Positions 3,589-43,900 of a stretch of 64,000 nt of DNA are shown here, piece by piece. Position 1 is the stretch's first letter; each line of letters opens with the position of its first letter. Source of the DNA: Candidatus Kerfeldbacteria bacterium (GTDB lineage: Bacteria > Patescibacteriota > Patescibacteriia > SBBC01 > CAIJZX01). The position numbers were made by a program, and so were the translations under genes. Where the stretch lies: positions 535,478-599,477 of the forward strand of contig JACPSJ010000001.1 of NCBI GenBank assembly GCA_016193315.1, given 5' to 3'. Under the pieces are notes generated by a model. The model was not told where the DNA came from. It ran no database searches and saw only the letters and a program-made list of their open reading frames with translations.

Positions 3589-4365
3589 ATGCCGCTCGTC
3601 TTTGCGGCCGTTGTCCCCCACGCCCCACTCCTCGTGCCGGCCGTGGCAAAAGAACATCAACGCCTGACCGCGGCCACCCGTCAGCAGCTGGCTCGTCTGG
3701 CGGAAGAGCTCCACGCCAGCCAGCCGGACGGACTCATTCTATTTACCCCCCACGGGCCAGTTATCAATGACGTCCTAGTGGCGAACGTCGCCGACGAATA
3801 CCTCGGAGAGTTGGTTGAGTTTGGTGATCTGAAAACAAGGCTCCGCGTTCGCGGCGCGCCGTGGCTGGGGCATCGGTTCAAAGAACTAGCTGAAAGTCTT
3901 CACCTGCCGCTTCAGCTGCAAACGCTTCCTCGTCTCGATTATGGAACAACGGTGCCCTTGAAATTTCTCCTGGCCGGCCAGCCGGGACTACCCATTCTAC
4001 CACTCACTGTCGCCCATCAACCAGAATCACTCCTGGTCCGTTTCGGACGAGTCGTCTCATCTGTCGTGCAGAGTGATCGTCGTCGGTACGCGCTCGTGGC
4101 TTCGGGCGACTTGACGCGTCGGTCGGAAACTACCGCTAACTTTCAACGGCCGACGGCCGAGGAGCGGGCGATGGCCGAGGCCATCAGCCGCCTCAGTATT
4201 GATCCGTTGACGGATGTTACGATCCAACCTTCAACCTGCGGTTACCGCCCGATGTATCTCCTCCTAGCAAGTCTCCAGGGCCGGCCCGGTCGAGGAGTCA
4301 TTCGTTCGTTCGAAGCGCCACTCAAGGTCGGACTACTGACCGCTGGGTTTGAACTCAATCCATGA
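3589..4365 (+). CDS. LigB-type (class III extradiol dioxygenase / MEMO-like) family protein
   Basis: 258 aa; N-terminal AAVVPHAPLLVP and LFTPHGPV His-Pro motifs typical of the LigB/DODA catalytic fold; the ATGA stop overlaps the next gene. Confidence 0.4.
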   Translation: MPLVFAAVVPHAPLLVPAVAKEHQRLTAATRQQLARLAEELHASQPDGLILFTPHGPVINDVLVANVADEYLGELVEFGDLKTRLRVRGAPWLGHRFKELAESLHLPLQLQTLPRLDYGTTVPLKFLLAGQPGLPILPLTVAHQPESLLVRFGRVVSSVVQSDRRRYALVASGDLTRRSETTANFQRPTAEERAMAEAISRLSIDPLTDVTIQPSTCGYRPMYLLLASLQGRPGRGVIRSFEAPLKVGLLTAGFELNP

Positions 4366-28388: not shown

Positions 28389-28493
28389 ATGAAGCGACGT
28401 CATCTGGAGCGACTGTGGATCGTGCTGTCGATTATCATGATCGCCGGGATGATTATGTTTACCATTGGTCCAGCTCTCGGCTTCCTGATCTAG
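28389..28493 (+). CDS. Candidate 34-aa small membrane peptide
   Basis: ATG at 28389 gives MKRRHLERLWIVLSIIMIAGMIMFTIGPALGFLI, a basic N-terminus plus one TM helix, in the 105-nt gap between two minus-strand genes. The RBS is weak. It is not in the ORF track because it falls below the length cut-off. Confidence 0.25.
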   Translation: MKRRHLERLWIVLSIIMIAGMIMFTIGPALGFLI

Positions 28494-30298
28494 TGTTTGA
28501 GCACCGCCAAGTACGCTGACGGCGGCAGGTCAACTTTCCCGAACGCCCGCAACCGCTGCTTACCGCGTTTTTGTTTGGCCAACAGTTTCCGTTTTCGTGT
28601 CACGTCACCGCCATACAGTTTGGCGGTCACGTCCTTGCGGCGAGCCGGGACGGTGGCCGCGGCCACAATGGTGCCGCCCACCACGGCTTGGATTTTAACC
28701 TCGAACAGCTGCCGCGGCAAGAGGCTTTTGAGCGTCTCCACTGCCTTCCGCCCGGTGGGGTACTGTTGATCCTGATAGACCATGGTTGACAAAGCCTCAA
28801 ACCGCTGCCCGGCGATGAGGATATCGAGTCGTACGAGTTCGGCCGCCCGGTAACCGGACAAGGCATAACTCACCGTCGCGTATCCGGCGCTGACGCTCTT
28901 GATGTGGTCGTAAAAATCCACCAGGATCGATGCCAGCGGGACGGAGAAATGGAGGACCGCCCGGTCGGGAGTCAAGTAACCCAGGCTGAGAAACTGTCCA
29001 CGATAGGGCCGGACGGTTTCGAGCACTGGGCCAATGAACTGACTAGGAGTGAGGACATCGAGCTTGACCACTGGTTCCTCAATCTGCTCGATGGTGGCCG
29101 CATCAGGCAGCTCGAGTGGGCCGCGGATAATGAGGGGGTGCTGGGCCCCGCGGGTCCAGACGTGGTAGGCGACCGAGGGTGTGGTGATCGTGATGGGTAC
29201 CTGATACTCGCGGGCCAGGCGTTCACGGACTATGTCTAGATGGAGCAGGCCCAAGAACCCGCCACGGAATCCAGCCCCGAGCGCGGGTGAGTGTTCCGGT
29301 TCAAAGGTAATGGCCGCATCATTGAGTCTCAATTTCTCCAGCCCTTGGCGCAGACGGGGTAGGTCGTGGCCATCGGCCGGGAAGAGCCCAGCGAAGACCA
29401 TGGGTGTCACTGGCTGGTAGCCAGTCAAGGGATCGAGCCGGATCCCAGCCGGGGCGATGGTGTCGCCGACCCGCGCCTCGACGACCGTTTTTAAGCCGGT
29501 CACGACGTAACCAATTTCCCCAGCCGTTAACGTTGATGTTGGTACCAGTTGCGGATGAAACTGGCCGACCGCCTGGACGGTGGAAGTGGCTTGGCGACCG
29601 AGGAATTGAATGTTCATCGACGGTGCGATCCGCCCATCAACAACCCGCACGTAGGCCACTACCCCCTGGTACGGATCGAAGGTCGAATCAAAAATCCGAG
29701 CCCGCAGCGGTTGCTCTGGTCGGCCGGCTGGCGGCGGAACATCAGTGATGATGCGCTCCAGGATCGCCTCGATGCCGTGGCCCTGCTTGGCCGAAGCGGC
29801 AATAATCGATCGTTGATCGATTTGTAATAACTGGGCCAACTCTGTTTTGACCCGGGGCAGATCGGCGTTTGGCAGGTCGATCTTATTGACCACCGGGATA
29901 ATGGCCAGTCCGGCCCGACGAGCGGCCTCAAGATTGGCCAGCGTTTGCGCCTGGAGACCCTGACTTGCATCGACGACCAAAACCGCTCCCTCAACCGAAG
30001 CCAAGGAGCGCGACACTTCATAAGCGAAATCGACGTGGCCGGGAGTATCAATCAGATTCAGCTGGTATCCGCGCCAGTCCATCCGGACCGGGGCCAACTT
30101 GACCGTAATCCCCCGCTCCCGCTCAATATCCATTTGGTCGAGGTACTGATCGCGCATGGCCCGACGGGGCACAGTGTCAGTACGCTCGAGAAATCGGTCG
30201 GCCAAAGTCGATTTGCCGTGATCGATGTGAGCGATGATACAAAAATTTCTGATTTTCCCCAGGCTGGTCATGACGAACGGGTCAAACCGTTCCGCCAC
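28490..30298 (-). CDS. lepA: Elongation factor 4 (LepA)
   Basis: 602 aa; G1 AHIDHGKST, G3 DTPGH, and the LepA-specific C-terminal domain. Confidence 0.9.
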   Translation of the reverse strand: MAERFDPFVMTSLGKIRNFCIIAHIDHGKSTLADRFLERTDTVPRRAMRDQYLDQMDIERERGITVKLAPVRMDWRGYQLNLIDTPGHVDFAYEVSRSLASVEGAVLVVDASQGLQAQTLANLEAARRAGLAIIPVVNKIDLPNADLPRVKTELAQLLQIDQRSIIAASAKQGHGIEAILERIITDVPPPAGRPEQPLRARIFDSTFDPYQGVVAYVRVVDGRIAPSMNIQFLGRQATSTVQAVGQFHPQLVPTSTLTAGEIGYVVTGLKTVVEARVGDTIAPAGIRLDPLTGYQPVTPMVFAGLFPADGHDLPRLRQGLEKLRLNDAAITFEPEHSPALGAGFRGGFLGLLHLDIVRERLAREYQVPITITTPSVAYHVWTRGAQHPLIIRGPLELPDAATIEQIEEPVVKLDVLTPSQFIGPVLETVRPYRGQFLSLGYLTPDRAVLHFSVPLASILVDFYDHIKSVSAGYATVSYALSGYRAAELVRLDILIAGQRFEALSTMVYQDQQYPTGRKAVETLKSLLPRQLFEVKIQAVVGGTIVAAATVPARRKDVTAKLYGGDVTRKRKLLAKQKRGKQRLRAFGKVDLPPSAYLAVLKH

Positions 30299-31872
30299 AC
30301 CCGGTCACGGAGTTGCTGCCAGACGGAGGTCAGGAGCGAAGCCTCAGACAGTCGGAAGAGGCTGGCAAAAATAGCATAGGAAATTAACCCGACGGCCCCG
30401 GCCACCACCGCCTGCGCTAGCACGCCGACCGCACGCGTCAGGTCGAGCCCGAAACTGACCAAGAAATACTTAGTCGCTTGAACCGTCAGAGCCATCAGGA
30501 TGGTGACGCCGAGGATCTTGATGACCGACTGGATAATCCGATCGTCATCGAGATGACCAATCCGCCGGTGGAGTGTCAGCGCCAACAGTCCGGCGTTCAG
30601 CACGCTCGAGACCGAGTATGCCAGGGCCAGTCCCTGAACACCCATGATCGGGCTGAGGACGACCGATCCGAGAATGGCAATACTAACCGCGGCGATAGTG
30701 TACCGCATCGGCGTTTTGGTATCCTGCATGGCATAGAACGAGCGGGCCAGCACGGGTATCAAAGATTGAGCAAAGAAGGAGAGGGCAAAAAAGCCGAGTG
30801 TCTGGGCGGTGGCGATCGTTTCCGGCCAGCTGACCTGGCCCGCTCCGATGATGACCCGAACGAACTGGGCCCGCAACTGCAAAAATAACACAGTCACGGG
30901 GATAATGACAAACAGGATGTTTCGGACAATGGTTGAGAACTGCTGCACGAATTCTTCGCGGCGCCCCTGACTGAGCAGTTCGACGAAGCGTGGGAATGCC
31001 ACGGTGGCCATCGACAAACCCATGATCGTGACTGGGAAGTCTTGGATGTCGTTGGCCCAACGGAAAATCGATAGGTTCGCCGGCCCGAGGCGAGTGGCGA
31101 TGGGAATAGTCGCCAACTGATTGAGCTGGGTGACGGATTGACCGACTGTTCGCGGCACCAGGAGCTGTCCGATCTGTCGGACGCCGGGGTGTCGCCAACC
31201 AGCCCCTCGACCCGGACGCCAGCCAACCCGCCAGGCCGCCGCGGCGTGGATGGTGGTGTGGAGGAATGCCCCCCCGACCGCCCCCCAGGCCACCCCAGCC
31301 GGACCGAGCACCGGCACGAACCACAGGAGGCCGGCGATGATCCCGAGGTTATTGAAGATCGGCGCCAGCGACACGGCGACGAAATGGCGGAACGAGTGTA
31401 GAACGCCAGCAAAAACATTGCTAATCGAAAAGAGGAGCATGTTCATTGACATGATCCGGGTCAGGACGATCGCCGTGTGTTGGGCCGCCAAGCCGAACTT
31501 GTGACCGACCAGGAGTTTGACGAGCGGCTCAGCGGCCACGAGCAGAATTAAGCCTAAAGAAAAAAAGACGATCATTAGGATGTTGAGGATCGAGCGGGAG
31601 ATGCGCCAGGCCTCAGCCTGGTCGCGCTGCCGGTAGGCGATGAACACCGGCATGAACGACGTCAGCAGCGAGCCGAGGATCAGCGTTCCGTAGATGAAAT
31701 CGGGGATAGCAAAGGCCGCGTAGATCGGGTCCGCCCCCTCGGCGCCGAAGGTCGAGGCGATCAGGCGCTGCCGGATCAGACCAAAGAGTTTACTTAAGAT
31801 CCCGGTGACTCCCACCAGGACCGCGCCGCCCAGAATTGTGGTCTGGATTGTCTCCAGCAATTTCCGCCACAT
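30268..31872 (-). CDS. murJ: Lipid II flippase MurJ (MviN family)
   Basis: 534 aa, about 14 TM; MOP-superfamily MurJ pattern. Confidence 0.8.
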   Translation of the reverse strand: MWRKLLETIQTTILGGAVLVGVTGILSKLFGLIRQRLIASTFGAEGADPIYAAFAIPDFIYGTLILGSLLTSFMPVFIAYRQRDQAEAWRISRSILNILMIVFFSLGLILLVAAEPLVKLLVGHKFGLAAQHTAIVLTRIMSMNMLLFSISNVFAGVLHSFRHFVAVSLAPIFNNLGIIAGLLWFVPVLGPAGVAWGAVGGAFLHTTIHAAAAWRVGWRPGRGAGWRHPGVRQIGQLLVPRTVGQSVTQLNQLATIPIATRLGPANLSIFRWANDIQDFPVTIMGLSMATVAFPRFVELLSQGRREEFVQQFSTIVRNILFVIIPVTVLFLQLRAQFVRVIIGAGQVSWPETIATAQTLGFFALSFFAQSLIPVLARSFYAMQDTKTPMRYTIAAVSIAILGSVVLSPIMGVQGLALAYSVSSVLNAGLLALTLHRRIGHLDDDRIIQSVIKILGVTILMALTVQATKYFLVSFGLDLTRAVGVLAQAVVAGAVGLISYAIFASLFRLSEASLLTSVWQQLRDRVWRNGLTRSS

Positions 31873-32325
31873 ACAACAACCGCACGCAGTTTACCACTTT
31901 TTGGTCCGCCTGACAAGCCGCAAATACAAAAACGACCCACGGTTTGGGTTACCCCGCCAGCCGATAGGCACTTCTGGCTGAACCAGGAGCGGTCAACGCT
32001 CTGCGGTATCCAACGGAGGAGAACACCTTGCGGTGTGACATTGGGTCCTACAGCGCGCGGACATCACTGATTCAGCCGGAACTGCAACTGAACTCTTCCT
32101 ACAGTAGTCGCATGAGTTCCGTCGCTCGTCAAGACCCTCCAACCTCCCTGGCCGCCACCACCTGGCCCTGGCGACGCCGTGGAGGGACGGCGCACCGGGA
32201 CCGGGCGTGATGACGACCAGGAAAGTTCCGTTGCTTGATCGGGCAGCACAACGGTTCGGTCTCGCTGAAAGGAGCGACTAGCTACTCCACCAAAATACAC
32301 TTCATCAGAACTGTGCTTTGGTGGG

Positions 32326-32351
32326 GGCTCCGACTCAATAGAGTCGGAGCC
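32326..32351 (-). terminator. Perfect 11-bp hairpin GGCTCCGACTC-aata-GAGTCGGAGCC downstream of the collagen-like gene
   Basis: Seen directly; lies 26 nt after the stop at 32377; no U-tract, so it may be a stabiliser or bidirectional terminator. Confidence 0.45.
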
Positions 32352-32376
32352 TGAAATGCGAGGGGAGGAACGAGAC

Positions 32377-32988
32377 CTAGACGGTGGTGACCGGCGGGGC
32401 GGCAGCGCCAGGGGCACCCGGCGTGGTCTCGGCCGCCGGAGCCGGAACACGATCCCGGATGATGACCACGCGCCCTGGCACCTGGCCTTCTTCCCGGACC
32501 ACGGCGCGGGCCGTGTCCCGCACCGCGGCGGTGAATGTGGCGCTCGCGAATAGATCGGTGCCGGCCGTGGCCGGGCCGACTCCGGCTATCGCGACCGACG
32601 CATGGTGATGGGCCATCGCGACGTGGAACGCATTCCGGGCTTCGGTCCGCGCGGCGCCGAGCTGCCAGAAGATGATCGGCATCCCGACCACCACCAGCAG
32701 GGTCACGATCGCCACCCAGACCAGAGACATATTGCCCCGGTCGTAGGCGATGACCAACTGACTCGACTGCTCCGGCGAGAACGTCCCGACCGGCCCCTGG
32801 ACGCCCTGTTGACCCTGCGGTCCTCTCGGCCCCCGCTCGCCGCGCGGACCCTGCGGCCCGACCACCACGGCGGTCGCGGGCTGGCCCTGATCCTCGACCA
32901 GGGCCGCCGACGCACTCGACTCCGGCCCCTGGGCCAGAACCGGAACGGCCAAGGCCATGAGCAGGAAAACGACGGTGATGAGCTTCAA
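32377..32988 (-). CDS. Secreted collagen-like (Gly-X-Y) repeat protein with C-terminal TM anchor
   Basis: TTG start with AAGGAGGG 4 nt upstream; signal peptide MKLITVVFLLMALAVPVLA; 13 consecutive G-X-Y triplets (GPQGPRGERGPRGPQGQQGVQGPVGT); TM LVWVAIVTLLVVVGMPIIFWQL; Ala/Pro-rich tail. Confidence 0.6.
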   Translation of the reverse strand: MKLITVVFLLMALAVPVLAQGPESSASAALVEDQGQPATAVVVGPQGPRGERGPRGPQGQQGVQGPVGTFSPEQSSQLVIAYDRGNMSLVWVAIVTLLVVVGMPIIFWQLGAARTEARNAFHVAMAHHHASVAIAGVGPATAGTDLFASATFTAAVRDTARAVVREEGQVPGRVVIIRDRVPAPAAETTPGAPGAAAPPVTTV

Positions 32989-33502
32989 GTCTCCCTCCTT
33001 GATTGCGCCGCTCCACCATGAAGCGGCGATCCGACCCCGTATGAAATCACGGGGCTAAATTGCTGCTTCATGGTAAAGCCTCTTCTGAACACCACCGAAC
33101 AGGAGGTGAGCGTATGGCGTTGCCTTCCGCGAAGCCACGTTTTACGTGGTGAAGCGGGGTCGTCGCCATTGATGCGCCAAGACCATGGGGCCGAAGAGTA
33201 GCAACCCTCAAGCCTATGGATCCGGCACGGCCGGACAGCGTCCATGCTGGCTGTCCGCTAGTCCGGTGCTCTCCCCTCCTTGTCGGTGGTGTCTCGCTGT
33301 TGTAAAAGTACGTTCTGACTTGAACGATCGATCGTTGATCAATCATTCAAGTCAGAGGGGGAGTGCGGTACAGAACCACGCTCCCCTCTCTATGCTTCAC
33401 AATCCCTAGCGGGATTGGACCGCAACCTTAGTTGCGGGATTTTGTCCAAAGGGCGTTTCAGGAAGACATATCACCCCTTACTCACGCCTGGCTTCGCCAG
33501 GG

Positions 33503-34003
33503 TTAGGCTACGCGCTGGTGACCGTGGCCTCTCCTCCGGCCGGATCCCGGCTTGTCGATCCGCTCGCCAGGACGGTCGAAGGCGGAGCGCAGACGGTAGT
33601 CGGCCACACTGCGGCCGACTTGCTTCGGATTCTTGCGGTGGTCGTGGACCGCCGCTTTGCCATTGCCGTTCAAGGCAGCAATGGTAGCAGTGTAGGCCTC
33701 GGCCGCTTCCGTCCGGAGCTGCTCCTGCCTCTGTTGGCGAGCCAGCATACCCTCAGCCTCGAAAAGCTGGCGGAAGGCGCGGTCCCGAGCCTCTCTCCAC
33801 CAGCCGATCTGGAGAGCCATTCCCTTCAGATGCTGTCCGAGCTGCTGCAGCTGGTTCTGTTCGGCTGGCGTCTCGCCCGGGCAGGATTCGATGTCCTGCT
33901 GGGCGCGATCGGCTGCCTCGGCCAGGAGCCGAAGATTGCGCTCCGCCTCCTCCATCCTGGCCTTGAGGGAAACGATCCGCTCCGACAGCGACACAGAACT
34001 CAT
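33503..34003 (-). CDS. Coiled-coil protein of unknown function
   Basis: 166 aa; ATG preceded by AGGAGG 7 nt upstream; heptad-rich sequence (LKARMEEAERNLRLLAEAADRAQQDIE...). Confidence 0.55.
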   Translation of the reverse strand: MSSVSLSERIVSLKARMEEAERNLRLLAEAADRAQQDIESCPGETPAEQNQLQQLGQHLKGMALQIGWWREARDRAFRQLFEAEGMLARQQRQEQLRTEAAEAYTATIAALNGNGKAAVHDHRKNPKQVGRSVADYRLRSAFDRPGERIDKPGSGRRRGHGHQRVA

Positions 34004-34149
34004 GAGATTCCTCCTGCCCGACTTGGGCGGAATGGGGTAATGGTTTGTACGGTACGACCGGATCTTCCGGCCGGTGGTCTCAACGCATCGTTAAGCTCAC
34101 CGGGGGAGGGCGGTGCGGGTCCGAGTTGAACTCGGGCACCGCCCAGGAA

Positions 34150-34338
34150 CTACTTCTCCACCCTTGGCTCGTCCGCCTTCTCCTTCGGCTGTCGGCACTT
34201 GCAGTCCGCGCCCCGGCACCGACAGAACTCGGAGATCCGGTAGCCAGCGGCCTGGGCCGTGGTGAGCGCCTGCGCGTCGACGACCCCGCCGCGTTCGGCC
34301 GACTTGGCCAAGGCAATCAACGCTTCGCGAGGACCCAT
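34150..34338 (-). CDS. 62-aa protein with C-terminal Cys cluster (CRCRGADCKCRQPKEK)
   Basis: ATG preceded by GGAGGG 5 nt upstream; CxC-x5-CxC motif suggests a small metal-binding knuckle. Confidence 0.5.
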   Translation of the reverse strand: MGPREALIALAKSAERGGVVDAQALTTAQAAGYRISEFCRCRGADCKCRQPKEKADEPRVEK

Positions 34339-34393
34339 AGTTCCCTCCAGTTCCGGTCTGCCCGACCGGCGGGGTGGCCGTAGCCACGGTGGC

Positions 34394-34756
34394 TCAGTCG
34401 GCTTCTCGTTCGGCCGCCAGCTCCCTCTCCGGACGGGGGTGGATGTCTCGCGTTCTGGTCCGACCCCGCGAAGGGATGAACACCAGGATGAGCATCATGA
34501 TCCCGCTGACGAAGAGCACGCCGGAGATGATCAGGAAGCTTGGCGCTCCGAAGTCGCGGACGGCGTTTACCACGACAACGGCGGTGTTGTGCAGCCACTC
34601 GAGGAGAGCGGCTGTGGCCTGCTGCAGGCCGTTGGCCAGGAGCGCCGTCTGCTGCCGGAAGTAGTCCGGCCGACAGAGGAAGCTGATCCCGGCCGAGACG
34701 AAGCCCCCAGCGACGAAGACCACAGCGGTGACCAACAGTTTCAACCGTTTCGGCAT
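34394..34756 (-). CDS. Small two-TM membrane protein
   Basis: 120 aa; ATG preceded by AAAGGAGC; TM1 LLVTAVVFVAGGFVSAGISFL and TM2 FLIISGVLFVSGIMMLILVFI; Arg-rich tail. Confidence 0.55.
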   Translation of the reverse strand: MPKRLKLLVTAVVFVAGGFVSAGISFLCRPDYFRQQTALLANGLQQATAALLEWLHNTAVVVVNAVRDFGAPSFLIISGVLFVSGIMMLILVFIPSRGRTRTRDIHPRPERELAAEREAD

Positions 34757-34773
34757 GTTTAGCTCCTTTGCAG

Positions 34774-34953
34774 TTAGTCGGTCGCAGTCGACCCAGACGC
34801 CTCGTCTGTATCTTCGAGAGTCTGGTTGCGACTCCAGATGACGTCACGGATCTCCTGGCCGATCGTACGGCAGGCCGTGACGAGGGTATCCAGATCGAAC
34901 TGCTGACCGGCAATGAAGCGGTTGACGAAGTCCTCGGCTTCGGCCTTGGTCAT
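34774..34953 (-). CDS. 59-aa acidic protein (MTKAEAEDFVNRFIAGQQFDL...); a longer upstream-extended form is possible
   Basis: ATG at 34953 is preceded by AGGAGAAG 5 nt upstream. The frame stays open up to the TTG at 35133 (track ORF), with an alternative ATG at 35082. Confidence 0.45.
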   Translation of the reverse strand: MTKAEAEDFVNRFIAGQQFDLDTLVTACRTIGQEIRDVIWSRNQTLEDTDEASGSTATD

Positions 34954-35151
34954 CGTCACTTCTCCTGGGACAGCAGACGAACTGTCTTGATCCGGCCTGG
35001 CCACAGTTTCTGGTTCGATCATGCCAAACCTAGAAAGCTGGGTTGTGATCGTCCGGCGTAGACGACTGAATAGTACCTGCATTGCTGTCACTCCGTTCTG
35101 ACGGCAGGGGTGGTGGTAGGTGGATGGTGACAAAGATCGAAGGTGCTTCTC

Positions 35152-35358
35152 TCACTTGGGCGCCCCATGCTTGATGGAAGCGCCCGAGTGAGGGGAGGAG
35201 TTGTGGAGGGGAAACTCCTCCCGCGTGGCTGGAACGAGGTCGTAGAGGCTGATCCCTGGCTGGTAGCGCAGGTGATACAAGCTGTTTTCGACCTCATACT
35301 CCAGTTCGACCGGTTGGCCGGTCAGATCGTTGATGTACCGCCGCGAGATGATGCTCAT
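35152..35358 (-). CDS. 68-aa protein of unknown function
   Basis: ATG at 35358 is preceded by GGAGG 7 nt upstream (MSIISRRYINDLTGQPVELEYEVENSLYHL...); the C-terminal low-complexity tail overlaps hairpin H1. Confidence 0.45.
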   Translation of the reverse strand: MSIISRRYINDLTGQPVELEYEVENSLYHLRYQPGISLYDLVPATREEFPLHNSSPHSGASIKHGAPK

Positions 35359-35505
35359 GGCTGTACCTCCTTGATAGGTGCGGCCGACTCCTCGCTCGAA
35401 CATTCCATACTTCCGTACCGAATGCTCGAGTGAGAGTAGGAAGATGTTGCCATCCTCCTCTCACCGTGTGTGACACCGGGTGAGCGGTGGTGCAATGCCT
35501 AGCGG

Positions 35506-35892
35506 CTAGCCGGCCTGTTCGGGAGACCGAACGTCCATGGCGCAGAGACTCAGACAAAAGAGCCAAAAGGCCGTGCCGATGAGGTAGAACTGCCACGGCA
35601 TGAGGTCCATGCGAACCTGCTCGCCGCCGACGGCGATGATGGCCGACGCCACATAGGCCAGGATCGTGCCGAGGAGTTTGATCGGTCGGCTCGACTGCAT
35701 CAGCGGGTAAGTCAGACCGCCGAAGACCAGACCGACGAGGCCGAAGAAGGCGGCCGCCGCCATGTTGAGGTCCTTGGCCGAGGCTAGATGCGCCGGGGCG
35801 AACGCCCCTTGAAGCGCGGTGTACCACAGGTAGAAGCAGCCGGAAACGGTGGCCACAATGACGGCCAGGCCAGTCCAACGAATCGGACGCAT
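35506..35892 (-). CDS. Four-TM membrane protein of unknown function
   Basis: 128 aa with four hydrophobic helices; GGAG-type RBS 12 nt upstream. Confidence 0.55.
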   Translation of the reverse strand: MRPIRWTGLAVIVATVSGCFYLWYTALQGAFAPAHLASAKDLNMAAAAFFGLVGLVFGGLTYPLMQSSRPIKLLGTILAYVASAIIAVGGEQVRMDLMPWQFYLIGTAFWLFCLSLCAMDVRSPEQAG

Positions 35893-36844
35893 TCGATCTC
35901 TTTCTCCGCCTAGAGCGGATGGAATGTACGATCCAGTTCCTTGTTCTTTACCTCACTTGAGCACTCAGATTCCCTCCAAGATTAGAAAGGGGGATGTTTG
36001 TGGGGGCTGAGTGCTCGAGCGAGGGTAAGATCTGGATCTCGATGCTCCCTTGAGCGCCCCGTGTGGAGGGACACGAGACGCTCGAGGGAGGGGGCGTCGC
36101 AGCACGAATACTGGACGCCCCAGGTGCGAGGAAGTGCCCGTTCACTTCCTCCGCTATTCAGCTCGGTCGAAAGGGCGTTACATAAATCCGGTCACGGCGT
36201 TCACCTCCTTGTTCAGGGATGGTGCCTCGAGGGAACGAATCAGGAGGCGAGCTGGAGGCGGCTTATGTCGACCGAAGTCAACGAACCGCCCAAATGTCCT
36301 TTGGCGTGGCTTTGGGAGTTTGCACCCCCTTGGCTACGATGTTAGGACGGCTGGATCCTGAGCCGCTTCAAGCGTGATCAGAACGCCAGTGCTCTCCCCT
36401 CCTTATTCCTCCCCTCTCTCGAAGGGACAGGTTTCTGCGACCAATGACACACGGCCACTGGCCGCAGAGCCTGTCCCGTCGAAATGGATACTCGGCTGGG
36501 GGAATCAACCCCTTTCTGTCGTCCCGATGCGCTTTGCCATCGGGCCTTCCTCCCTGCCCCTTGAGTTAAGGGGAAGGACATCAACAAAAAGGGTGGGGCG
36601 CGTTGAGGACCGATGAGCACCTGAATCTAGTTCAGGGTTAGTCGCCAACGCACCCCACCCTTCGGTGGCAATGGTTAGTAAATGTCGCTCCTCAACGACG
36701 CTGATGCTTGGTTGTAAGGCGCTGCCGGATCTCCTCTTCCTTCAGCCCAATTCAAGCGTAACAGGCCACTATAGAGCAGCCCTTGAATTTTGTCAAGGGG
36801 TACCTGGCCTAAAACGCCGTTTATCCGCTAACCTTAGCCTTTTT
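35893..36844. other. ~0.95-kb protein-free, highly structured segment (candidate large ncRNA / regulatory region)
   Basis: No ORF with an RBS on either strand. Perfect 11-bp hairpin at 36126-36154. Nested hairpins at 36420-36575 (GGACAGG...CCTGTCC, CCCGATG..CATCGGG, CCCCTTgagttAAGGGG). 15-bp inverted repeat GGGTGGGGCGCGTTG...CAACGCACCCCACCC at 36591-36660. 29-nt polypyrimidine tract at 36391-36419. Confidence 0.4.
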
Positions 36845-39001
36845 CTATTTCAGGACAACCTGGAATTGGCGGGAACGCTCGGATGTTGTCACCCAAACAG
36901 CCTGGCGCCCATCTCGCTGGCTTGAAGCGAGGGGCGCGAATTCTCGAACCTTGCGCGACCCCGGATCGAACGATAAAGTCCATCGGCGTTCGACCGTTCC
37001 TGGTTGTTTTTGCCAGATCATATTCCATAACCCGTGATCAGTGATCTGATCGAAGGGCACGGTATAGGTAAAGGTGATCGTTTGTTGCTGGCCGGGCGGC
37101 AGCAAGCTCCAGGCGCCGAAAACGCGCTTGCCGTTTTCGGCACTGAAACGGAAATGGTTGGTCGAATCGACCAGGACTTGACCTTCAGCCCGCTGAAGTT
37201 TCGACGATGGGGTGGTGCCAGGAGACGCGGTTTGGAAAAAACCCGCTGGCGGCGTCGAGGCGCCAGTGATCGACCCCAGCTGGGCTGAGGCCGGAACATA
37301 GATTCGCAGGAAGTCGTGGTTTGGTTGGAACCCGAGCGGATCGTCGGCTTGGCCGCCATGGACACGGGTCACCTTAACCGTGTGGCGAAGCAGACCGCTA
37401 TCGAGGGTGACGGCAATATCAACGTTTTCGGTCACTACACGATCTGTCTTCCCGCCGCCCAGATTACTATCAACCACGGACAGATAATCACCGTCGGTCT
37501 GGATAACGGCACCATTCCACCCTAGTTCGGCCACCGTCTGTCCGAAGTCAGGATCCTCGCTGGCCAGCATGATATTGGCCTGAGCGGCGTGAGACAAGAT
37601 CGTCACCACGGCCTCCAGTGCCTCGGCCGTGGGCAGTGAGCCAACGGACTGCAGCAGGACGGGAATAAGATCGAGAATGAACTGCTTCGGGTTATTGAGC
37701 GCTCGATCGAATTTTAATTCGACTTGCTGTTCCGTCGCGCGGACGAAGTTGTCGGCGGTCACGGCCACGTCATACCCCGGTGGGCGGAGCGGTCCGGTCA
37801 GGCGTAGTAAATCCTCGACCACGGCCGGGCTGAGCGCGATTACACCGTCCGGTCGAAAACCGCGGGCCTGCTCGTAGAAATCAAGCATGAACGAGGCTGA
37901 TGTCGGCCAGTCAAGAAACCAGTTGGCGTCATGGAATGCCCAGTACGGCGCCACCGCCAGCAGCGGTTCTGGTGGCCGCGTGGTATGCGGCGTCGTCGCC
38001 GTCAAGTCAAACGGGCCGGTCGCTGGCGCATCGACAATCCTCATCCGGCCACGGTCAAACTTGACGAGCACAAAAGTACCGGCAAACCCTCCGCTGGGCC
38101 GCAACTCATCATCATTCTGAAACACGACCAAATACTCTTGGGCTTGGTGCTGGGCAAACAAGCCGGTCAATAATCGACCAACCTGCTCGACCGCTCGGCC
38201 GTCAGGGAAGAATGACTGCTCGACCAGCTGCCACCAGCGCACCATTCTGGCGTAGTCGGCTGGCAGGACATCTGGATCGACCGATCGAAGAGCCCGTTCG
38301 GCCACGGCCAGATCGTTCACCACCGCAGTTAATGTGGCCGGCGCGCTGAAAATGGGCGTCAAAAACCCTAAGGATCCCTCCCATCCCTGAATCACGTCAC
38401 GCGGGGCGTTGGAGTGCGGGCGGGGGGCCGATGCCAGGGCTGTAGTCGCTCGTTGCCCGGCCTGGGCTAACGACTGGCCAGCCTGCGCTAGGGAACGAGC
38501 CGTCCGATATCGATTCCCGAGGCCGGGTAGGAACTCGACCATTGACGGTGGCAACCCCAACGGTCCTTGGAGGTCCGGCTCGATTCGCCCAAACAAGCGT
38601 TCGGCCTCGGCAAAATGCTGCCGCGCCGTAGCGACTTGATACTCGCGCCACGCCATCAGGCCAGCCTGAAGTTCTGACGCCGCCTGCTGTCCCCGGGTGG
38701 CCACCTGTCCGGCGGCCTGAGCGAACCGCGCGACGCCGACAATCGCTACGGCCGGGATGATAACCACCAACCCAACCACCAGAAAAAAGAAACTCTGCCG
38801 ACGGATTGACCCCCAGTCGCGGGCGGCGGCTGGCATATGCCAGGCGGCCGCCGGCCGCCGACGGAAGTGGCGACCTAAGTCCGGACGCGGAAGACGGCGC
38901 CGGTTTTCGGCCGCTTCCACCTGACGTTCCGCCACGATCTGGCGTAGATCGAGAACGTTGTGATCAGGAACGGGCGGGTGAACGTTTGGCGAGCTGCTCA
39001 T
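36845..39001 (-). CDS. Large membrane-anchored extracytoplasmic protein, possibly DUF4012 family (polysaccharide-locus associated)
   Basis: 718 aa; N-terminal TM (FFFLVVGLVVIIPAVAIVGV); coiled-coil-like Ala/Gln-rich region, then a long extracellular domain; sits at the head of the GT4-Wzz-GT4-PGT operon. Confidence 0.5.
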   Translation of the reverse strand: MSSSPNVHPPVPDHNVLDLRQIVAERQVEAAENRRRLPRPDLGRHFRRRPAAAWHMPAAARDWGSIRRQSFFFLVVGLVVIIPAVAIVGVARFAQAAGQVATRGQQAASELQAGLMAWREYQVATARQHFAEAERLFGRIEPDLQGPLGLPPSMVEFLPGLGNRYRTARSLAQAGQSLAQAGQRATTALASAPRPHSNAPRDVIQGWEGSLGFLTPIFSAPATLTAVVNDLAVAERALRSVDPDVLPADYARMVRWWQLVEQSFFPDGRAVEQVGRLLTGLFAQHQAQEYLVVFQNDDELRPSGGFAGTFVLVKFDRGRMRIVDAPATGPFDLTATTPHTTRPPEPLLAVAPYWAFHDANWFLDWPTSASFMLDFYEQARGFRPDGVIALSPAVVEDLLRLTGPLRPPGYDVAVTADNFVRATEQQVELKFDRALNNPKQFILDLIPVLLQSVGSLPTAEALEAVVTILSHAAQANIMLASEDPDFGQTVAELGWNGAVIQTDGDYLSVVDSNLGGGKTDRVVTENVDIAVTLDSGLLRHTVKVTRVHGGQADDPLGFQPNHDFLRIYVPASAQLGSITGASTPPAGFFQTASPGTTPSSKLQRAEGQVLVDSTNHFRFSAENGKRVFGAWSLLPPGQQQTITFTYTVPFDQITDHGLWNMIWQKQPGTVERRWTLSFDPGSRKVREFAPLASSQRDGRQAVWVTTSERSRQFQVVLK

Positions 39002-40094
39002 AGACAGTCAGCGTCTGACGAGCCAGGGTGGACCAGGAGAAATACCGTAACCGTTCATGGCCGGACTTGATCAAACGCTGCTGCTCTAGCTTATCACGAA
39101 AGGCCCGGCGGATCGAGTCGGCAATGTCCGCCACCTGCAGCGGATCGAAATACGCCGCCGCCGGGCCAAAGACCTCTGGCAGACAGGAGGCGTTGGCCGC
39201 ATAGACTGGGATGCCGGCGGCCATAGCCTCCAACCCAGGTAAACCGAAACCCTCGGACAACGAGGGGAAGATATAGGCCTGGGCGTACCGGTAGAGCGCG
39301 CTCAGTTCGGCATCGGAAGCGAATCCGAACCAGCAGACACGGTTGATCCCCTGCTGCTCAGCCCAGTCTCGTAGGCGGCGGGAGAAGTAATCCTCCTTCC
39401 CTACGAGCACGAGTTGGCCCTCGATCTCGCTGCTGACCTGTTGCCAGGCCGCCAATAGTCGTTCGAGATTCTTGTGCGGGTAAGAGTTCCCGACATGGAG
39501 AAGGAACGGGCGTTTTACCCCGCGGCGCGCCAAATCGGTGACCAGCACTGGCGACGGCAGTTGGTCAACTCCTTCGTAGGTCACTACTATCCGGTCCGCC
39601 GGCAAAGCAAAACGACGTCTCAGCTCCTGCCGACTGTGTTCGGAAACAGTAATAATTTTCCGCGCTTTCCGGACGGCTTGGCGCAAGACGAGCCGGTAGG
39701 CCGCGAACTTGGCGCGAAAAACAATCGGTTCAAGCGTGGTCGCACGTTCGGTGCGAAACTGATCGAGGATCAGATCGTGGATGGTGACGACAAAGGGTCG
39801 GCGATACAGAATCGGGACATTGAAGTGGGGGACGTGAAGAAGATCAAGACCGGCCCGGTAGTAGAGGGACGGTAAGAACAGTTGTTCCTTGAACGTATAC
39901 CATCGATAGTCAGCCAGAACTTTCCGCCAGTTCGGTTGTTGTGGCCGCCAGCGGTCCCAAGCCTCGGCCCGGAGAAAAACGATGTACTCGTTCCGGTGGT
40001 CAATGGCCTCGAGGTGGTGAATCAGTCGCTCTACATAGCGTCCGATCCCCGTCTCGAGCGGCCCAAAGAACCGAGCATCGATCCCAATGCGCAT
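38964..40094 (-). CDS. GT4 (group 1) glycosyltransferase
   Basis: The real start is most likely the ATG at 40094 (MRIGIDARFF, the typical GT4 N-terminus), which shares one nt with the Wzz TGA stop (TGATG); the C-terminal EX7E-type motif region is present. Confidence 0.7.
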   Translation of the reverse strand: MRIGIDARFFGPLETGIGRYVERLIHHLEAIDHRNEYIVFLRAEAWDRWRPQQPNWRKVLADYRWYTFKEQLFLPSLYYRAGLDLLHVPHFNVPILYRRPFVVTIHDLILDQFRTERATTLEPIVFRAKFAAYRLVLRQAVRKARKIITVSEHSRQELRRRFALPADRIVVTYEGVDQLPSPVLVTDLARRGVKRPFLLHVGNSYPHKNLERLLAAWQQVSSEIEGQLVLVGKEDYFSRRLRDWAEQQGINRVCWFGFASDAELSALYRYAQAYIFPSLSEGFGLPGLEAMAAGIPVYAANASCLPEVFGPAAAYFDPLQVADIADSIRRAFRDKLEQQRLIKSGHERLRYFSWSTLARQTLTVYEQLAKRSPARS

Positions 40095-40711
40095 CAGGAC
40101 GCTGGGAAACGAAGGTAGTGTTGTCCGGTGACCAGCAGTAAACCGAGAACCAAGCTGGTGATCAAGGCCAGCGCGGCCACCAACCACAGGTTTACCCGGT
40201 CGGGAGCGATGACCGGGTCACTATCTACAATCTCAAACAGCGGCTGCCCCTTCGGATCCTGGTTTAACTGATGCGTGCGCTCTTGTAACAGCGGCGGCAT
40301 GGCCGCGGCTACCTGTTCCGCTCGGCGCCTGGTCCGCTCGGAGAAGCGGACGACGATATTCTGGGCCGAATAACGCTTGACGCGGAAACGGGAAGGCAAC
40401 GTGGCTAACGATTGAATTTCGGGATTCACCTTCGCCCGGGCATATATTTCGTTCAACATGGACGGCGTCAAGAACCAACTGACCACGGTCTGCGAAAAGA
40501 GGTCAGCCGCCTGCAAGGCGTAGTAGCCATCATACTGGTAATCCGGCGTTGGTTCCGGCCTGACCCGGTTGACGGCGAACGACTGTGAGACGGCAAAGCG
40601 TGTCGGTCGACCTGCGGCGACCGCGAAGGCCGTCACCGTGGCCACGCCCACGATGGTTATGATCAGCCAGCGCTGACGCCAATAGAGCTGAAGATATTCA
40701 CGCAGTTCCAT
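40094..40711 (-). CDS. Wzz/Cps-type polysaccharide chain-length determinant (PCP) protein
   Basis: 205 aa; N-terminal TM following the Wzz-like motif (LREYLQLYWRQRWLIITIVGVATV); extracytoplasmic region; C-terminal TM. Confidence 0.6.
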   Translation of the reverse strand: MELREYLQLYWRQRWLIITIVGVATVTAFAVAAGRPTRFAVSQSFAVNRVRPEPTPDYQYDGYYALQAADLFSQTVVSWFLTPSMLNEIYARAKVNPEIQSLATLPSRFRVKRYSAQNIVVRFSERTRRRAEQVAAAMPPLLQERTHQLNQDPKGQPLFEIVDSDPVIAPDRVNLWLVAALALITSLVLGLLLVTGQHYLRFPAS

Positions 40712-43212: not shown

Positions 43213-43261
43213 GACCGTCTACGTACCTCTCGACCAGACCACCGGTAAGCCGAATTCTGTT

Positions 43262-43331
43262 CCCGCACCTTTCTGAGCTCAACACCTGATGGTGATGGTT
43301 GACGTGTGGCCGTTGCTCAGAAAGGTGCGGG
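43262..43331. repeat. Perfect 17-bp inverted repeat CCCGCACCTTTCTGAGC ... GCTCAGAAAGGTGCGGG with 36-nt structured loop
   Basis: Seen directly, between the PGT gene start and the 3' end of rnpB; may act as the rnpB terminator or a protein-binding site. Confidence 0.5.
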
Positions 43332-43369
43332 AGATGATCATCTCTCTTGGAGTGCCATTGCTGACACCC

Positions 43370-43900
43370 TCTAGCGATCTACCCGTCCCGCTGTCAGGCG
43401 GAACCTATACGATCTTGCACCAGAGAGGGTTTGCCCGCCGTCCGGCTCACGCCGGACCGCCGTGCGCTCTGACCGTCACCGCCTTTCGGCGGGATCCCGC
43501 GGTATGCGGGACACGATTTCACCCTTACTCTTTCCACGCCGGCGAAGCCGCGCTGCGATCCCCCGGTTCATTTATGAACCAGAAGACTGGCCAGTGTCGA
43601 CTCGCGAGAAGTGCCTGAATGAATCAAGCGATGGCATGGAAGGAGCGGTATGTTTCTGTTGCACTCTTCGTCCCGCTATATAGCGGGATCCCTGGGCTTG
43701 GCCCCGACGCCCCGCTCACCGGGGGTCGGGATTACTCCCGGTCGCTGTTAGCGACTCTCTGCTTATCCCGACGCGCTTGCGCGGTCGGCATGGTGTTCGG
43801 ACTTTCCTCCCCGATCGCGCTGACGCGCACCGGAGCGATCATCTAGTGGTCTGGAAAGAGGCTCAAACAGCGTACTATAATCGAGGCCCGCTGTCAACCT
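43370..43900 (-). ncRNA. rnpB: RNase P RNA (bacterial type A), ends approximate
   Basis: Minus-strand sequence contains the P4 motif GGGGAGGAAAGTCCG, then GAGTGCAACAGAAACATACCGC, AAGGGTGAAATCGTG and GGTCAGAGCGCACGG, in the order of E. coli M1 RNA; the 5'/3' ends carry a complementary GCGATC. The overlapping plus-strand ORFs are spurious. Confidence 0.7.

Follow-up and report, generated by a model that had tools for sequence, protein, structure and literature searches.

The 64,000-nucleotide (nt) stretch analysed here (the window), which belongs to a Candidatus Kerfeldbacteria (Patescibacteria) metagenome-assembled genome, contains, at positions 31873-36844, a segment of small open reading frames (ORFs) and structured non-coding sequence that fills the exact interval between the start of murJ (31872) and the stop codon of a DUF4012 gene (36845). 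We consider it probable, although by no means assured, that this segment, a characteristic of Candidatus Kerfeldbacteria, has been passed on vertically and serves to express fast-evolving envelope proteins under the control of RNA. Its elements follow one another in a fixed order on a single strand: a promoter, a leader with its terminator, a hairpin, a large structured RNA here called K, small genes preceded by hairpins, K again, a second structured RNA called U, and a terminator (Table 1). An earlier note, written from the sequence of the window alone, had laid its emphasis on the ORFs and had described the remainder as structured non-coding DNA. The ORFs are indeed real and the remainder is indeed structured, but the conserved and evidently selected part of the locus is its non-coding RNA, which takes the form of discrete, conserved elements.

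Evidence for this interpretation comes from 15 related loci retrieved via MurJ (L004-L008 and L118-L127; MurJ identity from 78% down to 43%), so that the survey as a whole covers 64 kb of this genome and about 15 relatives. A gap of 3.1-6.6 kb separates the DUF4012 gene from murJ in all 12 relatives whose sequence spans both genes (L004-L006, L008, L118, L119 and L121-L126; MurJ identity 49-78%), whereas in the more distant genomes L012 and L009 of the Candidate Phyla Radiation (CPR) the two genes directly adjoin. The gap, the promoter and the RNA elements occupy the same site in every Kerfeldbacteria relative examined, down to a MurJ identity of 49-52%. The gaps of the relatives likewise hold small co-oriented ORFs lacking Pfam domains, with an occasional receiver domain or KTI12-like kinase; searches of them by tblastn, blastp and phmmer returned no homologues for six of the seven ORFs of the window (all but ORF-C), and ORF content turns over completely even between genomes whose MurJ proteins are 74-78% identical. 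Comparison of the gaps by blastn nevertheless revealed blocks of 70-85% identity, located outside the ORFs. Over these blocks, tblastx gave similar scores in several frames and on both strands, which points to the nucleotide sequence, and not the encoded protein, as what is conserved.

K is a four-way-junction RNA of ~185 nt. Within its long closing stem lie an AGC/GCU helix and a GGGAGG/CCUCCC helix that is invariant. Three arms issue from the junction: one is a hairpin whose AAGCAUGG loop is conserved, one has three parts and ends in UUCG or GCAA, and one has two parts and ends in UUCG; overall the caps are of the UUCG or GNRA type, and exchanges of UUCG for GCAA are seen. The two copies in the window are 50% identical and share the same structure, a longer arm replacing the short UUCG hairpin in copy b. 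With a covariance model built from seven copies, 15 full copies are recognised in 11 loci and the window, all on the gene strand and all inside the gap; three shorter variants lacking one arm, also on the gene strand and inside the gap, are present in the most distant loci (L125-L127). In the alignment of the 15 copies 93.1% of cells are paired, against ~40% when the partners are slid by 1-3 columns, and compensatory changes occur in 45 of 60 pairs, values that none of 500 shuffles matched. As this alignment was fitted to the model, it favours the structure; an independent treatment of the first seven copies with MAFFT and RNAalifold gave 34 compensatory pairs out of 54. Copies within a genome are 50-62% identical, compared with up to 83% for orthologues, which points to an old duplication after which both copies were maintained.

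The placement of K is equally constrained. It always lies in the promoter-proximal part of the gap, and most copies end 30-60 nt 5' of a ribosome-binding site and start codon; no conserved terminator was found 3' of K among the copies compared. K was absent from 75 non-Kerfeldbacteria murJ loci (1.13 Mb). A metagenome scan with a K-derived pattern yielded 34 stretches, none of them a true K by the covariance model, and in viral contigs the full pattern had no matches while two 15-mer seeds recovered 43 stretches, all of which the model rejected. Both K and U are large, elaborately structured RNAs with many invariant unpaired bases. Identification of either with 6S, SRP or tmRNA was rejected on architecture and by the lack of a match in Rfam or ARAGORN.

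U has an invariant unpaired CUCCUCC, an invariant ACCGCUCC and an optional GCAA-capped extension, and is found once in each of 12 loci, invariably a short distance upstream of murJ. Pairing involves 93.5% of its alignment cells (slid controls, 25-40%), with covariation at 27 of its 37 pairs; it has no match in Rfam. A reading of its GUGAUG as a K-turn or box C/D motif was dropped, the bulge and the G·A positions being unsuitable. U is followed by a short intrinsic terminator, T2, at whose position the relatives have U-runs or hairpins, and then by the promoter of murJ itself. Between this promoter and the ATG of murJ at 31872 there is room for a leader of just about 10-15 nt, making the gene nearly leaderless, an arrangement seen in 13 loci; murJ appears insulated from the upstream array by U and the terminator. 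In one relative (L121, 9686-9799) a 16-base-pair (bp) terminator-like hairpin and a promoter-like TTGACA-18-AAAAAT, with 10 of 12 consensus matches, lie directly upstream of U.

At the opposite end of the segment, transcription is predicted to start near 36761 on the minus strand, from a promoter whose TTGAC and -10 elements are invariant across 12 related loci and which, in the window, in L121 and in L008, has no strong rival on the gene strand near the beginning of the gap. The leader that follows is predicted to form two stem-loops, SL1 and SL2, and a terminator hairpin, T1. The inner stem of SL1 differs in sequence among genomes while its loop is constantly (U)GAGGAG, and a single-stranded CCUACAAY motif lies 3' of it. 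T1 comprises 22 pairs, several with compensatory changes, and five or six U residues follow its stem. An antiterminator pairing of CGUUGAGGA with the 3' strand of T1 fits the window; it fails in L005 and was dropped. Beyond T1 comes a further conserved hairpin, block 4, for which RNAalifold on 11 loci returned 18 pairs, with compensatory changes in nine. Between T1 and K there is no strong promoter, which argues that K is reached by read-through.

The third recurrent component is a family of hairpins (H-hairpins) represented by 23 instances in 10 loci, in which an outer stem CUCRCUCGAG...CUCAAGYGAG is kept and the interior is variable yet paired. They usually stand 40-60 nt before a ribosome-binding site and start codon, or are followed by YUUACAAC and K; the latter order is found also in L008, L006, L122, L123, L121 and L005. 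The first hairpin of the window has an orthologue in L008. Outside the gaps, a regular-expression scan of the remainder of the 64-kb window, of ±10 kb around the gaps of the relatives and of 1.3 Mb from other loci found no instance. The hairpin repeat family recognised in the earlier note is in this respect both real and specific to the locus, with three members in the window. The segment has no match in Rfam 15 at the gathering score, and at E values up to 5 only chance eukaryotic or archaeal matches; seven relatives and the L008 gap were likewise devoid of family matches at E values up to 5-10. Literature searches returned nothing relevant to this locus, and its description in that note as a previously undescribed system agrees with both outcomes.

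The protein-coding component presents a very different picture. On identical contigs from three Logan assemblies, an independent gene caller predicted the same seven small minus-strand ORFs that had been proposed before (128, 68, 59, 120, 62, 166 and 203 amino acids (aa), from ORF-A to ORF-G). Their G+C content at third codon positions (GC3), 0.75-0.86, and their ribosome-binding sites argue that they are real genes; for ORFs of the region that overlap them or lie in alternative frames, GC3 is mostly about 0.37-0.70. Canonical AGGAGG-type sites had been claimed for all of them. This holds for six, in which the site lies 5-7 nt 5' of the start codon, but not for ORF-A, which has only GGAG at 11 nt upstream. 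A small conserved hairpin, CCGCUYUAGGCGG, overlaps this weak site of ORF-A, the first ORF behind H-hairpin 1 (35905-35930, minus strand), and recurs in L121 (about 4170-4200) and in the gaps of L119 and L123; it may be a translational control element. A mini-ORF directly after K copy a has five codons (GTG ACC GGA TTT ATG TAA, encoding M-T-G-F-M-stop) and may encode a leader peptide or be what is left of a former gene. A consensus scan of 31700-37000, which is a crude instrument, found no plus-strand promoter; with regard to a type I toxin-antitoxin system, then, small transmembrane (TM) ORFs are present, while that crude scan showed no promoter on the plus strand.

In line with the earlier statement that none of the ORFs resembles a known family, searches against Pfam, PHROGs, NCBIfam and PADLOC gave no significant family for any of the seven, only noise from collagen repeats and coiled coils. 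Deep protein searches covered ORF-A, ORF-C and ORF-F: a full HMMER search over 1.84 billion representatives matched ORF-A to itself alone, and in a set of 5.8 billion proteins ORF-C and ORF-F each returned only a self-match, the family matches of ORF-F being coiled-coil noise. Homologues were found neither for ORF-B in the relatives nor for ORF-D and ORF-E in their gaps. Only for ORF-C do sister gaps, those of L004 and L119, hold weak relatives, at about 35-37% identity and E values of 3e-5 to 7e-5 in a database of 166 proteins. The anatomy previously assigned to these proteins was largely borne out: ORF-A and ORF-D have the expected four and two TM segments by prediction, ORF-F is the coiled-coil protein, and in ORF-E the cysteine cluster is real, its spacing being x4 and not the x5 originally given (FCRCRGADCKC). 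ORF-G displays all three features ascribed to it, a signal-peptide-like N-terminus, a collagen-like tract of eight uninterrupted G-X-Y triplets and a TM helix, and it also has a 95-aa tail. Its score against Pfam Collagen, 22.0 bits, is below the gathering cut-off of 27.2, its PHROG matches span the G-X-Y repeat only, and an AlphaFold2 model made without an alignment is of low confidence (mean predicted local distance difference score, pLDDT, 56.8), with N-terminal and central helices. The evidence supports the view that the seven ORFs are novel orphans, many of them targeted to the envelope, and the uncharacterised cell-surface module suggested at the outset is plausible on those same grounds.

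A similar theme runs through the relatives, where 33 of the 65 proteins called in the gaps contain one or more TM segments and the gaps also include a lipoprotein-like and a type-IV-pilin-like ORF. The latter, in L006 (7910-8314; gap positions 2150-2554), has a pilin-like N-terminus, GFTLIELMIVVVVIGILAAIAIP, and a GC3 of 0.95, and fits a surface or attachment cargo. A few small families are common to the gaps at differing positions: a zinc-ribbon-like protein of ~65 aa, a peptide of ~40 aa, an "RCxxNxWAVP" protein and a last-gene family of ~150 aa. A stand-alone Response_reg receiver gene lies inside the gap in both L122 (7042-7428) and L124 (4451-4807), the two being 49% identical to one another; their product might be a partner of the conserved elements, whether as RNA or as DNA.

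Table 1. Positions in the window of the elements and genes of the DUF4012-murJ segment, in the direction of the genes.
Feature	Position	Strand	Details
DUF4012 gene	36845-39001	-	Pfam, 98 bits
Locus promoter, TTGACA-17-TATAGT	36768..36796	-	49 nt past the DUF4012 stop; 11/12 consensus matches
Leader RNA	36585..36762	-	~175 nt; conserved in 11 loci
SL1, GAGGAG loop, then CCUUACAAC	36710-36762	-	Predicted in 9/11 single-sequence folds
SL2, GAGG loop inside invariant CGUUGAGGAGCG	36684-36700	-	Predicted in 8/11 single-sequence folds
T1, ~20-bp intrinsic terminator hairpin and U5	36585-36663	-	Predicted in 11/11 single-sequence folds
Extra ~110 nt between T1 and block 4	36472..36584	-	Alignment gap; absent from most relatives
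Block 4, 18-bp hairpin GGYUCUGCGG...CGCAGRAACC	36430..36471	-	Conserved in 11 loci
K copy a	36229..36416	-	Covariance model 154.7 bits (opposite strand 32.7)
Mini-ORF and AAGGAGG site	36178..36210	-	Read from the sequence; directly after K copy a
H-hairpin 1, outer stem CUCGCUCGAG...CUCAAGUGAG	35951..36025	-	About 59 nt before ORF-A start
ORF-A	35506..35892	-	128 aa; 4 predicted TM segments; GC3 0.81
H-hairpin 2	35388..35436	-	About 32 nt before ORF-B start; stem nearly identical to L008 hairpin
ORF-B	35152..35358	-	68 aa; soluble; AAGGAGG at 7 nt; GC3 0.80
ORF-C	34774..34953	-	59 aa; NCBI version 82 aa, HYY50_03060
ORF-D	34394..34756	-	120 aa; 2 predicted TM segments; GC3 0.83; AAGGAG site
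ORF-E	34150..34338	-	62 aa; CxC-x4-CxC motif; GC3 0.86
ORF-F	33503..34003	-	166 aa; coiled coil; NCBI HYY50_03045
H-hairpin 3, variant stem, then UUUUACAAC	33299..33357	-	Directly upstream of K copy b
K copy b	33088..33293	-	Covariance model 125.9 bits
Imperfect hairpin, 31-nt arms	33010..33079	-	Between K copy b and ORF-G ribosome-binding site
ORF-G	32377..32988	-	203 aa; TTG start; GC3 0.84
U-element	31973..32080	-	108-nt rod-like RNA; 114.6 bits
T2, short intrinsic terminator ACCCA...UGGGU and U5	31927..31949	-	After U
murJ promoter, TTGTCA-17-(TG)nTAAACT, extended -10	31888..31916	-	TTGC/TGnTAnnnT conserved in 13 loci
murJ	30268-31872	-	Pfam MurJ, 235 bits

The alternative offered by the earlier note, a degenerate mobile or phage-derived island, drew on a GC content said to be visibly higher than that of the surroundings. 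When computed in windows, the excess proved marginal: the segment has 61.4% GC against 59.5% for the window as a whole, which places it at the 91st percentile of 5-kb windows (standard deviation 0.014). The excess is confined to the ORFs (GC 0.59-0.71, GC3 0.75-0.86), the three non-coding stretches of the segment, at 0.565-0.583, lying under the window average. In keeping with that note, the 952 nt at 35893-36844 contain nothing but spurious ORFs of low GC3, and no integrase or transposase was detected: tblastn with IntI1 found no match in the 64-kb window or in any of the Kerfeldbacteria loci, and scans of the seven ORFs against Pfam and PHROG matched no mobility genes. The GC3 of the ORFs does exceed the mean of 0.67 for long host ORFs, the proteins are orphans, and the repeat of ORF-G weakly resembles those of phage tail fibres, all of which might be taken to indicate a foreign origin. 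Codon usage, however, is like that of the host (correlation of relative synonymous codon usage with long host genes, r = 0.89), neither a tRNA nor direct repeats were found at the borders of the segment, and a distant-mode blastn search of the whole segment against 50,697 phage and 72,556 plasmid records had no match. The same position, promoter and RNAs recur in all relatives, and the shared promoter, leader, K and U make it very unlikely that their gaps arose by independent insertions. The presence of the gap in all 12 spanning relatives, together with the lack of a recombinase and of phage or plasmid matches, argues for a vertically inherited feature of the lineage. Nor can the ORFs readily be dismissed as spurious, given their strong three-base periodicity and ribosome-binding sites. 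A foreign island, or a set of spurious ORFs, is thus largely refuted by synteny and coding statistics, and we find either scarcely credible.

Viewed as an RNA-controlled expression locus, the segment would be transcribed on the gene strand as one unit, lying between DUF4012 and murJ and fired by a sigma-70 promoter. The leader transcript would either end at T1 as a small RNA or read through conditionally as an attenuator, T1 gating entry into the array. Read-through RNA would bear the 18-bp hairpin and then one or two copies of K, followed by the small, rapidly replaced genes, many of them preceded at 40-60 nt by a conserved-stem hairpin; U and the terminator would close the transcript, and murJ would start from its own promoter. 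The H-hairpins may direct the processing or govern the stability of individual small mRNAs, or offer them sites for protein binding. K might act in cis on the next gene, its folding and unfolding hiding or freeing a CCUCCC able to occlude the downstream ribosome-binding site; GGGAGG/CCUCCC is the only helix of K in which both strands are invariant, one being Shine-Dalgarno-like and the other anti-Shine-Dalgarno-like. The CUCCUC of U is the exact complement of the GAGGAG loops of the leader, and could pair either with those loops, whether as the two ends of one transcript or as two RNAs in trans, or with ribosome-binding sites. The leader and U motifs could equally operate via the anti-Shine-Dalgarno sequence of the ribosome or a GGA-binding protein. 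This mechanistic layer is tentative, and we rather doubt that it is right in its specifics. A role at the cell envelope is indicated by the membrane, secreted and coiled-coil cargo and by the location of the locus between polysaccharide genes and murJ. The envelope of an episymbiont is a place where fast evolution is to be expected, and a cargo of lineage-specific surface or envelope material is consistent with an episymbiotic lifestyle.

Several observations weigh against the interpretation as a whole or against parts of it. U is missing from L123 and L125-L127, and it may be transcribed separately in some genomes, given the promoter-like site in L121. SL1 and SL2 are the least secure of the predicted elements, resting as they do on single-sequence folds: with RNAalifold on MAFFT alignments no stem is recovered for SL1 and only a 4-bp stem for SL2. 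K copy a is separated from ORF-A by 336 nt instead of 30-60 nt. The genes behind K are mutually non-homologous (they encode TM, signal-peptide, coiled-coil and ORF-C-like proteins), which is unusual for an element of the riboswitch type; of the features expected of a riboswitch, K has the complex covarying fold and lacks functionally coherent genes downstream. The transcription unit, the read-through at T1 and the processing of hairpins are all inferred from sequence, and the proposed pairings lie beyond a covariation test because GGGAGG/CCUCCC, GAGGAG and CUCCUC never vary. The bolder proposition of an RNA-organised variable-gene system, in which K would be a new class of riboswitch or ribozyme, or else a sensor of a ligand or protein, that switches translation of the small surface-protein gene behind it by means of its internal Shine-Dalgarno and anti-Shine-Dalgarno mimics, the GAGGAG loops of the leader and the CUCCUC loop of U would join the two transcript ends, and the hairpins would serve as boundaries of exchange, appears distinctly unlikely. 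If true, it would mean a regulated, rapidly diversifying surface repertoire beside cell-wall genes, with exchange proceeding without an integron integrase.

The RNAs might alternatively be free-standing and act in trans, the leader as a CsrA/Rsm-like or anti-Shine-Dalgarno sponge and K and U as ribonucleoprotein components, the neighbouring ORFs being only loosely connected to them and small membrane proteins possible partners, as with OLE and OapA. We judge this unlikely, though far from negligible. A leader with its own strong promoter and U-run terminator, conserved in 11 loci and displaying a GGA-containing motif in two loops, would suit such a role, as would the size, elaboration and many invariant unpaired bases of K and U, the unrelatedness of the genes after K and the maintenance of two K paralogues. 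Set against these are the dependence of K on read-through, imposed by the want of a strong promoter between T1 and K, and the proximity with which K usually precedes a ribosome-binding site, which suggests action in cis; moreover, tblastn searches with CsrA and Hfq were empty in the 64 kb covered of this 857-kb contig and in the flanks of the relatives.

Two further possibilities draw on the layout of the locus. An integron-like array without an integrase, of the kind designated CALIN (clusters of attC sites lacking integron-integrases), would make the hairpins recombination sites for promoterless cassettes. It would account for the single strong promoter, the co-oriented short ORFs and their complete turnover at 74-78% MurJ identity, for hairpins with a conserved outer stem and variable interior that are confined to this locus, and for the reappearance of a few protein families at different positions among genomes. 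This we consider quite improbable, as no tyrosine recombinase occurs in the window or in any Kerfeldbacteria locus, only three hairpins serve seven ORFs so that most ORF junctions have none, no K was found in viral contigs, and the segment is unmatched among phage and plasmid records. By inspection, UUACAAC/GTTGTAA is also unlike the attC cores RYYYAAC/GTTRRRY and has no complementary partner before the hairpin. That K or the leader is instead a processive antitermination RNA for a long envelope-gene transcript, like the EAR element of Bacillus or the put RNA of phages, modifying RNA polymerase to pass the many hairpins and terminator-like sites, we regard as very improbable. The RNA does sit within a cluster of polysaccharide and peptidoglycan genes, with hairpins and U-rich tracts downstream, and K is always promoter-proximal in the gap; yet K lies downstream of T1, the strongest terminator, several of its copies are preceded by H-hairpins, the second copy would be left without a role, and no match to EAR or any other family exists in Rfam.

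Some observations on the surroundings of the locus are recorded here for completeness. RNase P RNA (RF00010, 140.5 bits; 43230-43854, minus strand) measures 625 nt against a 367-nt model, with insertions of about 36, 42, 100, 47 and 56 nt; that of the closest relative, L118 (1-541), is also long. As listed, with a GTG start, lepA (28490-30298, minus strand) shares 31 nt with the 3' end of murJ; independent gene calls give a shorter lepA of 593 aa and an overlap of about 4 nt, and murJ and lepA are tightly coupled in all relatives. Between two glycosyltransferase genes, every Kerfeldbacteria locus has a conserved protein of ~205 aa without a Pfam match (L001 2964-3581, or about 40090-40710 of the window), of which a copy at the edge of L121 (1-117) weakly matches Wzz, a chain-length determinant.

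From a broader perspective, CPR/Patescibacteria make up a large fraction of bacterial diversity, and literature searches returned nothing on structured regulatory RNAs within them. Strong covariation supports at least three RNA families from this locus that Rfam lacks (K of about 185 nt, U of 108 nt and the 18-bp hairpin), alongside which the leader and the H-hairpin family are conserved with weaker covariation support. Here RNAs are retained in order while protein genes give way to others even among close relatives, which inverts the usual pattern. If these RNAs control or organise variable surface proteins, they would provide a handle on how tiny episymbionts vary the molecules that contact their hosts. 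The locus also makes a new structured RNA of considerable size available to studies of mechanism and structure. In practice, a search for conserved RNA ought to precede any assignment of the "hypothetical small ORF islands" of metagenome-assembled genomes to mobile DNA.

Comparison with known systems helps to place the locus. The collagen-like ORF-G resembles Scl1/Scl2, Lcl and BclA in that an uninterrupted G-X-Y tract comes after a signal peptide and exposure at the surface is predicted, and differs from them in having eight triplets, a TM anchor in place of LPXTG and no detectable globular head domain. Integrons and CALINs resemble the array in their one upstream promoter, co-oriented short ORFs of fast turnover and intergenic hairpin repeats; in contrast, the locus has no IntI, no attC cores, genes without hairpins, and large structured RNAs, which to our knowledge integrons do not have. 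Like EAR of the Bacillus eps operon and HK022 put, a structured RNA lies here in an envelope polysaccharide cluster with hairpins downstream, but it has no Rfam match to EAR and the wrong position relative to the main terminator. The leader recalls CsrB, RsmY and RsmZ in its sigma-70 promoter, GGA-motif stem-loops and rho-independent terminator; unlike them it has two loops only, in which the motif is a full Shine-Dalgarno GAGGAG, and conserved RNA continues past T1, for which an attenuator is the better fit.

The succession of K copy a and the four-TM ORF-A is reminiscent of OLE RNA and OapA, a small multi-TM protein encoded beside its RNA. The two systems show no detected similarity in sequence or structure, the small proteins of the locus lack the conservation of OapA, and K has ~185 nt where OLE has about 600; the comparison therefore concerns a possible mode of action and not family membership. 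Orphan structured RNA motifs such as raiA, HEARO, OLE and ROOL have come from comparative genomics (Rfam; the surveys of Breaker and Weinberg). The RNAs of this locus are like these in being intergenic, strand-specific, multi-helix elements of 100-200 nt with compensatory changes, tetraloop swaps and conserved junction nucleotides; they differ in that several of them stand in fixed order at one locus, framing hypervariable ORFs, and among the loci examined K, U, the leader and the hairpins are found in Kerfeldbacteria only. The locus thus resembles known kinds, namely operon leaders, intercistronic RNA elements and orphan structured RNAs, in an arrangement that is unusual.

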